Origin: Escherichia coli
GTDB taxonomy: Bacteria; Pseudomonadota; Gammaproteobacteria; Enterobacterales; Enterobacteriaceae
Direction: 5' to 3' (one strand)
Assembly: GCF_017348835.2 (NCBI RefSeq)
Contig: NZ_CP071375.1
Length of the DNA stretch: 64,000 nucleotides
Numbering within the stretch: position 1 is the stretch's first letter; the number at the start of each line of letters is the position of its first letter. Positions 16,801 through 19,800 of this stretch are shown in pieces. A program made the position numbers.

Positions 16801-19800
16801 TGAAGTCGCAAGAGGCTCCGCTTGTTGTCTTACCACCAACGGGGCTTTATGGATTCTATTGCTTAATATATGATTGTATCAAACTTAGACTGCATAATTT
16901 AAACGAACATAACAATCAGGCAGGGGAAGAATGATAAAGCCATTTTCTGTGAGGTATGGTCATGTTGACGTTAGAGAGCATGTCCAGCTGAATGATCTTA
17001 ATTCTGATACACGCATAGCATTGTGGAATTGCTTATATCTTTTCCTTTGGACTAACAATCGTCAAACTGCTACAGCAACAAAATGTGCGCAGTCTGTGTG
17101 GATATATTATCTAAATCAACCTGCGGATAATATTCCTCGTTATGAAAGTGGATACAAAAGTGATAAGACGTTGCTGACTGCTATCCGAGATTATATATAT
17201 GGGGAAGCATGGTATTTGGTATATGATTTAATTGAGTTCATCATTGAGAGAACTAATTCATATATTAATCTATCGAAGCATCTCAATTCCATCTTTAAAA
17301 AGCATGGCGTTGGTTATACCATAATAAATGGTTGTATTACTCCTATTTCAAATGATAACGAAATTGAAAGTGTTCAGAACGCAGTTGATAATGGCACTGA
17401 TTCATCGCGTAGCCATTTCGAAAGGGCGTTACAACTAATGACGGATAGAGAGCAGCCAGACTACAGAAACTCGATTAAAGAGTCTATCTCTGCAATTGAA
17501 TCTTTATGCAGGAAAATCACGGGCAATGATAAAGGAACCTTGGGGGCTTGTCTTAAAGCTATAGAGGAAAAAGGATATATACACTCTGCAATGAAAGGCG
17601 CTTTTAGTCAGCTCTATGGTTATACAAGTGATCAGGGTGGAATACGTCATGCGCTAACAGAAGAAGATGTAAATCCTACCTTAGCTGAAGCTAAATTTAT
17701 GTTAGTCACTTGCAGTGCGTTCAGTAATTATCTGTTGTCAAAAATAAGTGATTAATTACAGGTTTATAGTTACGAGTGGGTTAGTTACCCACTCCCTTTA
17801 AAATTATTCACCAGACTCTAATCTTTTTTCTCTTTTCTCATCTCTCCTTTTTATTGCCAAATCGTGTTGCTCTTGCAGATACGTGCGTTCTTCGTTTCTA
17901 TCGCTTGAAGTATATACGTCTGCTTTTACTTTTTTAGCTCCTTGTGCAATAGGTTTCCAATCCTCTCTTATACCTTTAATTTGTTCTGCAATTTGCGTCA
18001 ATGGGCTTCTCGCTCCTAGATAACTTATTCCTTCAAATGTCGCCATGTCATACACATATTCATTTGTTTCTCTATCGTTTGATTTAGGTTTGCTTGCCCA
18101 GCTTATATTAATATTATAAATTTGATCTTTGATTTGTTCATACTTACAGAGATTGCTGGTAAGTGATTGCCCATTTTTTAACACGCTTACCTTACTAAAC
18201 GGAATCTCACTTTTTTCTCTATGCTCCGCATTTACTAGTGGAGGATCAAACACAACCTCAACATTATAGGCAGGTGCGTTCCCTGTATTAGCAATGTTAA
18301 TATCAAAGTAAAAAGCGGCCCAAGGGTTTGGCTCAAGTGTTACAACTATATGGGGTTGAGCTGATGCGTCAACCATTCTTTTTGTCTCGTCTGCTCTGAA
18401 GTGGTGAAGTGGTTTACTGAATTTGGCCACCTGAACAGAGGTGATATGCTCACCTCAGAACAACACAGGTGCTCCAATGAAAAAAAGAAATTTTAGCGCA
18501 GAGTTTAAACGCGAATCCGCTCAACTGGTTGTTGACCAGACATACACGGTGGCAGATGCCGCCAAAGCTATGGATGTTGGCCTTTCCACAATGACAAGAT
18601 GGGTCAAACAACTGCGTGATGAGCGTCAGGGCAAAACACCAAAAGCCTCTCCGATAACACCAGAACAAATCGAAATACGTAAGCTGAGGAAAAAGCTACA
18701 ACGCATTGAAATGGAGAATGAAATATTAAAAAAGGCTACTGTAGATTCAATCTGTCAATGCAACACCCCTTTCAATTATCTCTTTCGGTGTTTTGAACTT
18801 CAGTGTCTTTCTCGGTCTGTTGTTTAGCTGAGCAGCAACCAGATCTAGTTCATGTTGAGTATATTGGGCAAGACATGTCTTTTTAGGAAAGTACTGCCGA
18901 ATTAGCCCATTTGTGTTCTCATTTGTTCCCCGCTGCCAAGGACTCTGAGGATCGCAGAAGTAAACTTTAACGCCGGTGCTGACAGTAAATTCTAGATGTC
19001 TGGCCAGTTCCATTCCTCTGTCCCATGTCAGTGATTTTCTGAGTTCTGACGGTAAACTCAGGAATTTGTCGGTAAGAGCCTGATTTACTGAGACAGAATC
19101 TTTGCCCCTGAGTCTAAGGATGATCGTATAACGTGATTTTCGGTCTACAAGTGTGGCTATATGAGAGTTTTTTGTACCTGAGACTAAATCGCCCTCCCAA
19201 TGCCCCAGAGAGCGTCTGTTATCGATATTTCGGGAACGTTCGTGAATTGGTGTTCCGTTCACTATGTTAATCGTACCTCTTTCGCCTTTGCGGGTATGAC
19301 GCCTGCCATGGCGAAGGCTATGCGACCGTCGCAGATGCTGTATATTCAGGTGGTGTAGCGCTTCACGGCTACGAAAGTACAGCGTTTTATAAATTGTCTC
19401 AGGTGATATTCGCAGCGTTTTTTGACGTGGTTTTGTTCGCCTTAACCATCCTGATATTTGCTCTGGAGACCATTTCATCTCCAGCTTTTCCAGAACAAGC
19501 TTTCGCAATGGTAAATTTTGATCCAGTAAGCACGGTTTTGGCCTTTTCGCCATTCTGTTGGCTCGGTTATTAGCATCAACAGCTTTGTAATAGCGTCTGC
19601 CCCGATTACGCTGAACTTCACGTGAGATCGTCGAAGGACTGCGATTCAGCGCAGTAGCTATCGCACGAATGCTCATTTTGGCTGACAAACCAGCTCGTAT
19701 CTCCTCGCGCTCAGACAGTGTCAGGTGAGCTACAGCCCGCTTATGCTCATGGGGTTTTATGCCGCCAGTATCCCTTAACATAGTGAAGATCGTTCCGGGT

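Follow-up and report, generated by a model that had tools for sequence, protein, structure and literature searches.

A candidate single-protein abortive-infection factor with AbiJ_NTD4 and HEPN-fold domains at the leuX locus of Escherichia coli

Introduction

The 64,000-nucleotide stretch of Escherichia coli DNA analyzed here (contig NZ_CP071375.1 of assembly GCF_017348835.2; hereafter referred to as the window) contains, directly after the tRNA gene leuX, a gene for a 274-aa protein that had been picked out from its sequence as a candidate abortive-infection (Abi)/HEPN-like defense protein of the AbiJ/Abi_C type. In its essentials, this original prediction was right. The protein consists of an AbiJ-type N-terminal domain, AbiJ_NTD4, and a C-terminal domain that has the HEPN fold and an unusual motif; it is a member of the PADLOC family PDC-S32, and it travels as mobile accessory cargo without a conserved partner. 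We propose that the gene encodes a self-contained, single-protein abortive-infection-type defense factor of the AbiJ-like class, a reading to which we assign a probability of about 0.6; the defense role as such is a prediction. Below, we describe the domain make-up of the protein, the conserved motif in its HEPN domain, and the locus at which the gene resides, and we then weigh this reading against the alternatives.

Domain architecture and family assignment

Hidden Markov model (HMM) searches of Pfam and PADLOC-DB assigned the protein to AbiJ_NTD4 (E 3e-26) and PDC-S32 (E 6e-104), in keeping with the kind of protein that had been suspected. The PDC-S32 model PDLC04997 aligned residues 3–272 with profile positions 8–281 of 285. 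A second PDC-S32 model, PDLC04996, matched with an E value of 1.5e-86, and only PDC-S32 models were returned by PADLOC at E ≤ 1. The PDC-S32 models also recognize distant AbiJ-NTD4 proteins, found in Leptospira, Pantoea, Pseudomonas, and Firmicutes.

AbiJ_NTD4 was matched by Pfam in all 41 relatives (41/41). In the structure models, the domain comprises five helices, a β-hairpin, and then a sixth helix, and its invariant residues in the alignments are F5, S6, G10, Q19, W57, D66, W94, N119, Y129, and E144. The C-terminal domain is modeled as the four-helix up-down bundle of the HEPN fold, with AbiV, RnlA, and HepS as lower-ranked likenesses of the C-terminal half. Pfam matched no family to residues 152–274 of the query or of 23 relatives, and DUF4145, which is a HEPN family, gave sub-threshold matches to the C-terminal domain in 4 of the 23 members (E of at least 5e-3). 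When PDB sequences were compared with profiles of the full protein and of each of its two domains, only chance matches were obtained (E > 0.1). Since the Pfam and PDB-sequence searches were empty, the C-terminal half is HEPN by fold and not by current sequence profiles.

The gene is a real one and its family is large: a word-indexed protein search found 4,436 full-length relatives of the 274-aa protein, and the C-terminal domain alone yielded 4,822 clusters at 50% identity in a search of 1.84 billion representatives. Among the matches listed (150 proteins), the C-terminal domain always occurred in the same architecture, and the domain-only search thus gave no bridge to canonical AbiJ. An apparent bridging match on Enterococcus faecalis plasmids, covering residues 194–272 only, was rejected as a remnant of an AbiJ-NTD4 gene truncated by the insertion sequence (IS) IS6. 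One metagenomic family member (P0135, 539 aa) has an extension of ~260 aa on the C-terminal side of its HEPN domain, with a weak Pfam match to Adenine_glyco (methyladenine glycosylase; E 4.7e-5) and a terminal Cys cluster; the extension is either a true fusion or a mis-called gene.

Conserved motif of the HEPN domain

HEPN domains carry an Rx4-6H motif after the third long helix and ahead of the last one. In the 274-aa protein, this place is held by a block with the consensus LYGYTSDxGGIRHA (block 2 in Table 1). The second-helix block PDYRNSIKESISAVES is one of two blocks that dominate the conservation of the HEPN domain. Across 41 homologues with 39–78% identity, L228, Y229, G237, I238, R239, and H240 are invariant, and G230, Y231, T232, S233, D234, and G236 are at least 90% conserved; the conserved-looking segment that had been noticed in the C-terminal half is thus real and nearly invariant. 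Residues 5–7 ahead of H240 (codon at 17648–17650) are Q235, D234, and S233, and an Arg, R239 (17645–17647), directly precedes the His.

We also aligned the family with AbiJ-NTD4 proteins of only 18–25% identity, comprising those from Leptospira, Pantoea and Pseudomonas plasmid genes, and a Firmicute-rich branch; PADLOC places every one of these in PDC-S32. D177 and E190 are invariant at this distance, and conservation of N180, K183, E184, and H240 is 90% or higher. In the distant branch, the motif is Y-G-Y-R-[NG]-x3-G-[VI]-[AS]-H, an R-x7-H arrangement in which the Arg stands eight positions ahead of the His. The counterpart of this Arg in the E. coli protein is T232, and that of the Ala/Ser is R239. 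The combination of T or A at position 232 and R at position 239 is found in the E. coli branch and, independently, in Pantoea and Pseudomonas plasmid proteins. In a census of 272 fetched proteins, 262 had T/S/A at 232 with R at 239, 10 had R at 232 with A/S at 239, and none had both or neither arrangement (0/272). The Arg position thus covaries in 272/272 proteins, which argues that an Arg near the His is required. On the alignments, the catalytic arginine appears to have been relocated and not lost, T232 being in the ancestral Arg position and R239 the moved Arg, which would favor a competent active site.

Gene, control signals, and locus

The open reading frame (ORF) was present in the six-frame ORF list with an ATG start, and it is the first gene past the tRNA, exactly as originally claimed. 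Its product corresponds to RefSeq WP_000594911.1, which is named "AbiJ-NTD4 domain-containing protein". The ribosome-binding site (RBS) had been described as strong: a Shine–Dalgarno-like AGGGGAAG exists and is plausible as the RBS of the gene, a grade that falls short of "strong". CATAAT at 16893–16898, with a TG before it, is a possible –10 element. Between the gene and its convergent neighbor lies a GC-rich, terminator-like hairpin (GAGTGGGT-5 nt-ACCCACTC), whose RNA folds with –13.9 kcal/mol (z –2.2); the consensus terminator scan passed over it because it has no T-run.

The gene order of the region is yjgR, ahr, leuX, and then fecEDCBA, with leuX as the only tRNA gene found by ARAGORN in the window. 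The locus is defense hotspot #37 of E. coli, the most occupied of 41 (PMC12707154), and other strains carry different cargo there, which bears out the proposed integration-hotspot position. A 533-bp spacer without an annotated gene separates leuX from the gene, and the leuX-proximal part of this spacer is common to 629 of 5,426 E. coli genomes. In inspected genomes that match only query positions 1–465/475, the similarity ends ~465–475 bp past the tRNA and unrelated genes come next, including a DUF3800 gene, a DEAD/DEAH helicase, and resolvase-family recombinases. Within hotspot #37, this spacer stretch (16398–16872) forms a sharply defined point of cargo exchange that no integrase adjoins. 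Given the unrelated cargo past the shared spacer, the AT-rich module is one of the alternatives by which a variable slot is filled. Past the spacer, the cargo falls into at least three unrelated sets: the AbiJ-NTD4 module; a 304-aa hypothetical protein gene with a recombinase; and DUF3800 with a recombinase and a DEAD/DEAH helicase.

The composition of the module differs from that of the flanking core, as had been noticed: GC content is 0.36–0.39 over about 16750–18500 vs 0.52–0.56 on either side. Its right edge is the end of an IS3-family (IS911-like) element, which starts at about 18409 as judged from the IS terminal sequence. The copy in the window has no adjoining integrase; no integrase remnant was detected in the leuX spacer by tblastn, and a repeat of the leuX 3' end that would mark an island boundary was likewise not found.

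The gene is present in 468 of the 5,426 complete E. coli genomes (about 9%), always on the chromosome. With 473 places in 468 genomes, it is in essence a single-copy gene, and all but one of the carriers (467) share it at 99% identity or more. Among the carriers are S88, Nissle-related strains, and, with an identical gene, E. coli C (NZ_CP020543.1) and the type strain ATCC 11775 (NZ_CP033092.2).

Neighborhoods of relatives

In Klebsiella, Enterobacter, Kosakonia, and Pantoea, the AbiJ-NTD4 gene comes first after a tyrosine integrase and is followed by a resolvase-family recombinase; in Pantoea, integrase, AbiJ-NTD4 gene, and resolvase make up the whole 3.6-kb island. Plasmid-borne relatives adjoin MazF, Doc, and TIR genes. 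No partner gene was conserved across genera in the at least 10 neighborhoods examined, and no tandem-repeat RNA antitoxin was detected in 16300–18500 by TRF, a repeat finder, or Rfam. With neither a conserved partner nor antitoxin repeats, the protein is a standalone unit, as the original prediction had supposed.

Several side observations were made on these islands. The AbiJ-NTD4 islands of Enterobacterales lie within, and duplicate, the thiamine pyrophosphate (TPP) riboswitch that precedes thiM/thiD. In Pantoea (L023:6513-10173), an 81-nt direct repeat, 96% identical, brackets only the integrase, AbiJ-NTD4, and resolvase genes, and each repeat copy scores as a TPP aptamer in Rfam (55.8 and 72.6 bits). 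The Kosakonia locus has two TPP copies 8.6 kb apart, and in Klebsiella and Enterobacter, a TPP aptamer lies 60–160 bp upstream of the integrase. A riboswitch seems unusual as an att site. The Pantoea island also contains three tandem 22-nt repeats (TCCGTTGGACGGATTCCGACCA and variants; L023:8879-8944) 45 bp past the AbiJ-NTD4 stop codon, in a ~550-bp gene-free gap before the resolvase; they have no counterpart in the E. coli window and could be putative recombinase binding sites. The Brenneria homologue (L016:7001-7852) sits as a moron between gpV and gpW, baseplate genes of a P2-like tail module (prophage or tailocin).

Right edge of the island

The convergent neighbor, a DUF8453 ORF, shares 70% identity with ORF1, a "putative lysogenic conversion protein" encoded in the P2-EC53 Z-region, but only from residue 39 of the latter on. 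Its first 12 codons in the window come from the IS end, and the original start and about 38 codons are missing because the IS3-family (IS911-like) end abuts. RefSeq annotates the truncated ORF as a 190-aa coding sequence, and a DUF8453 relative also occurs in phage R18C between tail-fiber and sheath genes. The IS3-family element (18441–20867) is split by an IS30 insertion, and this nested-IS scar is the right edge of the island before fecE.

Table 1. Coordinates of features in the leuX region of the window
Feature	Position	Strand	Basis or remark
leuX, tRNA-Leu(CAA); anchors the variable region	16313..16397	+	ARAGORN; Rfam tRNA, 59.4 bits
Conserved leuX-proximal spacer, gene-free, about 47–49% GC	16398..16862	.	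Varied cargo beyond it in other strains
AT-rich cargo module, two convergent genes, GC 0.36–0.39	16863..18408	.	Composition; divergence of alternative-cargo genomes (left edge)
Shine–Dalgarno-like AGGGGAAG	16920..16929	+	Sequence reading; ends 2 nt before ATG
Gene for AbiJ-NTD4/HEPN protein, 274 aa	16931..17755	+	WP_000594911.1; PADLOC PDC-S32
N-terminal domain AbiJ_NTD4, residues 4–153; proposed sensor or regulatory module	16940..17389	+	Pfam PF18863, E 3e-26; structure models
C-terminal domain, residues 155–274, HEPN fold; proposed RNase effector	17393..17752	+	
Conserved block 1, residues 176–190, PDYRNSIKESISAIE, second HEPN helix	17456..17500	+	Alignments
Conserved block 2, residues 228–241, LYGYTSDQGGIRHA, non-canonical HEPN motif	17612..17653	+	Alignment
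GC-rich hairpin, 8-bp stem, terminator-like	17774..17794	.	Between two convergent genes
DUF8453 ORF, 5'-truncated	17804..18430	-	phrog_11802, E 7e-86; boundary marker, not a partner
IS3-family orfA fragment	18441..18735		
IS30 transposase	18747..19898	-	
IS3-family orfB pieces, frameshifted	20029..20867		
fecE	21765..22532	-	Beyond the nested-IS scar

Discussion

The architecture suggests how the protein may act. AbiJ_NTD4 was defined as the N-terminal partner of AbiJ-type HEPN domains (PMC3710099), and for this architecture Anantharaman et al. (2013; PMC3710099) put forward a model of an N-terminal sensor and a HEPN suicide ribonuclease (RNase). By the same scheme, the HEPN domain of the 274-aa protein would be a latent RNase, whose active site would consist of the invariant H240 and an arginine moved from the upstream position (T232) to the residue before the His (R239). 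The second-helix polar residues D177, N180, K183, and E184 probably assist it, and, to judge from other HEPN enzymes, two protomers would jointly make up a composite site. The N-terminal domain may keep the nuclease off in the uninfected cell; recognition of a phage-derived protein or nucleic acid by this domain would free the nuclease, and cleavage of RNA (tRNA, rRNA, or mRNA) would arrest the infected cell before phage release. The protein probably works like AbiJ or the HepS-type solo HEPN Abi proteins, among which HepS senses a phage tail-tip protein, is allosterically activated, and cuts tRNA anticodon loops (PMC13043305). The PDC-S32 match, the conserved His with its covarying Arg, the leuX hotspot with swapped cargo, and partnerless carriage on mobile elements all count for the defense reading.

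Several points weigh against it. E. coli C is a classical and widely permissive phage host, and since it carries the gene, any protection must be narrow. As the original reader had noted, the canonical Rx4-6H motif is absent: no R-x(3-8)-H occurs anywhere in residues 150–274, and catalysis is consequently not assured. The covariation of the Arg, as read from the alignments, is drawn from few independent lineages, essentially two clades and two plasmid lineages, and other causes could underlie the difference between the two clades. The PADLOC AbiJ model did not match the protein, nor did Pfam Abi_C (PF14355) at E ≤ 10, and none of the 41 relatives matched Abi_C at E ≤ 0.1 (E 3.2 at best, in P0135). 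The protein is therefore AbiJ-like by architecture and fold and not AbiJ itself; in the original assignment to an AbiJ/Abi_C type, the architecture and fold stand, with PDC-S32 membership alongside them, but membership in the Abi_C or AbiJ profiles does not. The consensus scan of the region in front of the gene yielded no sigma-70 promoter. Finally, we found no paper naming either "PDC-S32" or "WP_000594911" and no experimental report on any PDC-S32 member; the PADLOC PDC families are stated in the literature to be untested (145 candidates) and are excluded elsewhere as unvalidated.

The carriage of the gene on mobile elements could also be that of an addiction or stabilization module, in which a self-inhibited toxin would stabilize islands, prophages, and plasmids by post-segregational killing or exclusion and would not act against lytic phages. 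Such a role would suit a gene that is the sole cargo of the integrase and resolvase island of Pantoea, comes first after the integrase in four genera, and adjoins the toxin–antitoxin (TA) toxins MazF and Doc on plasmids, and HEPN domains are common as TA toxins (PMC3710099). However, a single stable polypeptide offers no obvious labile antitoxin for post-segregational killing, and there are neither RNA antitoxin repeats nor a partner ORF. Moreover, the E. coli copy is always chromosomal, near-identical among carriers, and without its own adjoining mobility gene, which fits a host-beneficial gene better than element maintenance, and we consider stabilization unlikely. Equally improbable, in our estimation, is a non-catalytic HEPN domain that has lost the canonical Arg and, by binding nucleic acid, a nucleotide, or a partner protein, serves as a regulator or adaptor, as the non-nuclease HEPNs of MtlR and sacsin and those associated with nucleotidyltransferases do. 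While the loss of the canonical Arg is the starting point of this explanation, H240, R239, D177, N180, K183, E184, and E190 are invariant or near-invariant in thousands of sequences, the Arg appears relocated rather than lost, and a mobile-element and defense-hotspot context is typical of effectors.

The gene might instead be half of a two-gene system with the convergent DUF8453 ORF, or a type III TA, as AbiV and AbiF are (PMC13064643). The two genes share one AT-rich module and occur together in 466 E. coli genomes holding at least 80% of window positions 16300–18500, and relatives of DUF8453 occupy the P2 Z-region, which is described as a lysogenic-conversion slot. The DUF8453 ORF, however, is convergent and 5'-truncated by the IS with its own start gone, and it is not co-conserved, being absent beside the AbiJ-NTD4 genes of Klebsiella, Enterobacter, Kosakonia, Pantoea, Brenneria, Xanthomonas, and Collimonas and those on plasmids; it was ruled out as a partner. 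The type III TA layout was likewise ruled out, as the stretch from leuX to the gene contains neither a tandem repeat array nor an Rfam RNA. We regard either arrangement as highly improbable. A bolder proposal concerns the N-terminal domain: AbiJ_NTD4 would be an unrecognized bacterial death-fold (PYD/DED/CARD-like) domain, phage-cued homotypic polymerization or clustering would pair the HEPN domains into active dimers, and the Arg–His pair would be a distinct HEPN active-site solution. If true, this would place inflammasome-style "induced proximity" within one small protein. Death-fold domains are listed for the N-terminal domain (the PYD of NLRP5 and MNDA; the DED of caspase-8, FADD, and PEA-15; and the CARD of NLRC4, Dark, and CED-4), but confirmation of the resemblance with Foldseek was negative, and we think this proposal quite doubtful.

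The gene is not new: it belongs to a large family already listed as an anti-phage candidate, and the combination of AbiJ-NTD4 and HEPN was described in 2013. If PDC-S32 is a working defense, it would be among the more widespread candidates, with 4,822 clusters and presence in about 9% of complete E. coli genomes. A resident Abi-type gene in E. coli C and ATCC 11775 could bias phage host-range work, and both strains are easily manipulated. The relocated arginine matters for annotation pipelines, as scans for Rx4-6H will miss functional-looking HEPN domains of this kind. Current understanding is not overturned; the gene is a well-placed, ready-to-test candidate that is prevalent and tractable, has a non-canonical motif, and is unsurprising, and it introduces no new principle.

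Among known systems, PADLOC PDC-S32 (Payne et al., "guilt-by-embedding") is matched over the full length of its HMM and is likewise single-gene; the 274-aa protein is a member with no structural difference. Lactococcus lactis AbiJ (Abi-859) and the AbiJ family share with it the order of an AbiJ-NTD followed by a C-terminal HEPN domain, as well as a size of about 280 aa, the single-gene format, and carriage on mobile elements. Lactococcal AbiJ has no known mechanism, and escape mutations map to an ssDNA-annealing protein (PMC13064643). In contrast to the 274-aa protein, which has T232...R239-H240, Rx4-6H is reported to be conserved for AbiJ. HepS, from the Gifsy-1 prophage of Salmonella, differs in having a canonical R100-x4-H105 and no AbiJ_NTD4, and it has no detectable sequence similarity to the 274-aa protein. 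The NCBIfam family STM4504/CBY_0614, the AbiJ-NTD4 prototype of 2013, is similar in length (about 281 aa) and gives a weak local match to residues 116–198, a stretch that runs from the end of the NTD into the first HEPN helices. The 274-aa protein scores 15.8 bits against its curated cut-off of 150, however, and is thus in a different subfamily from STM4504/CBY_0614.

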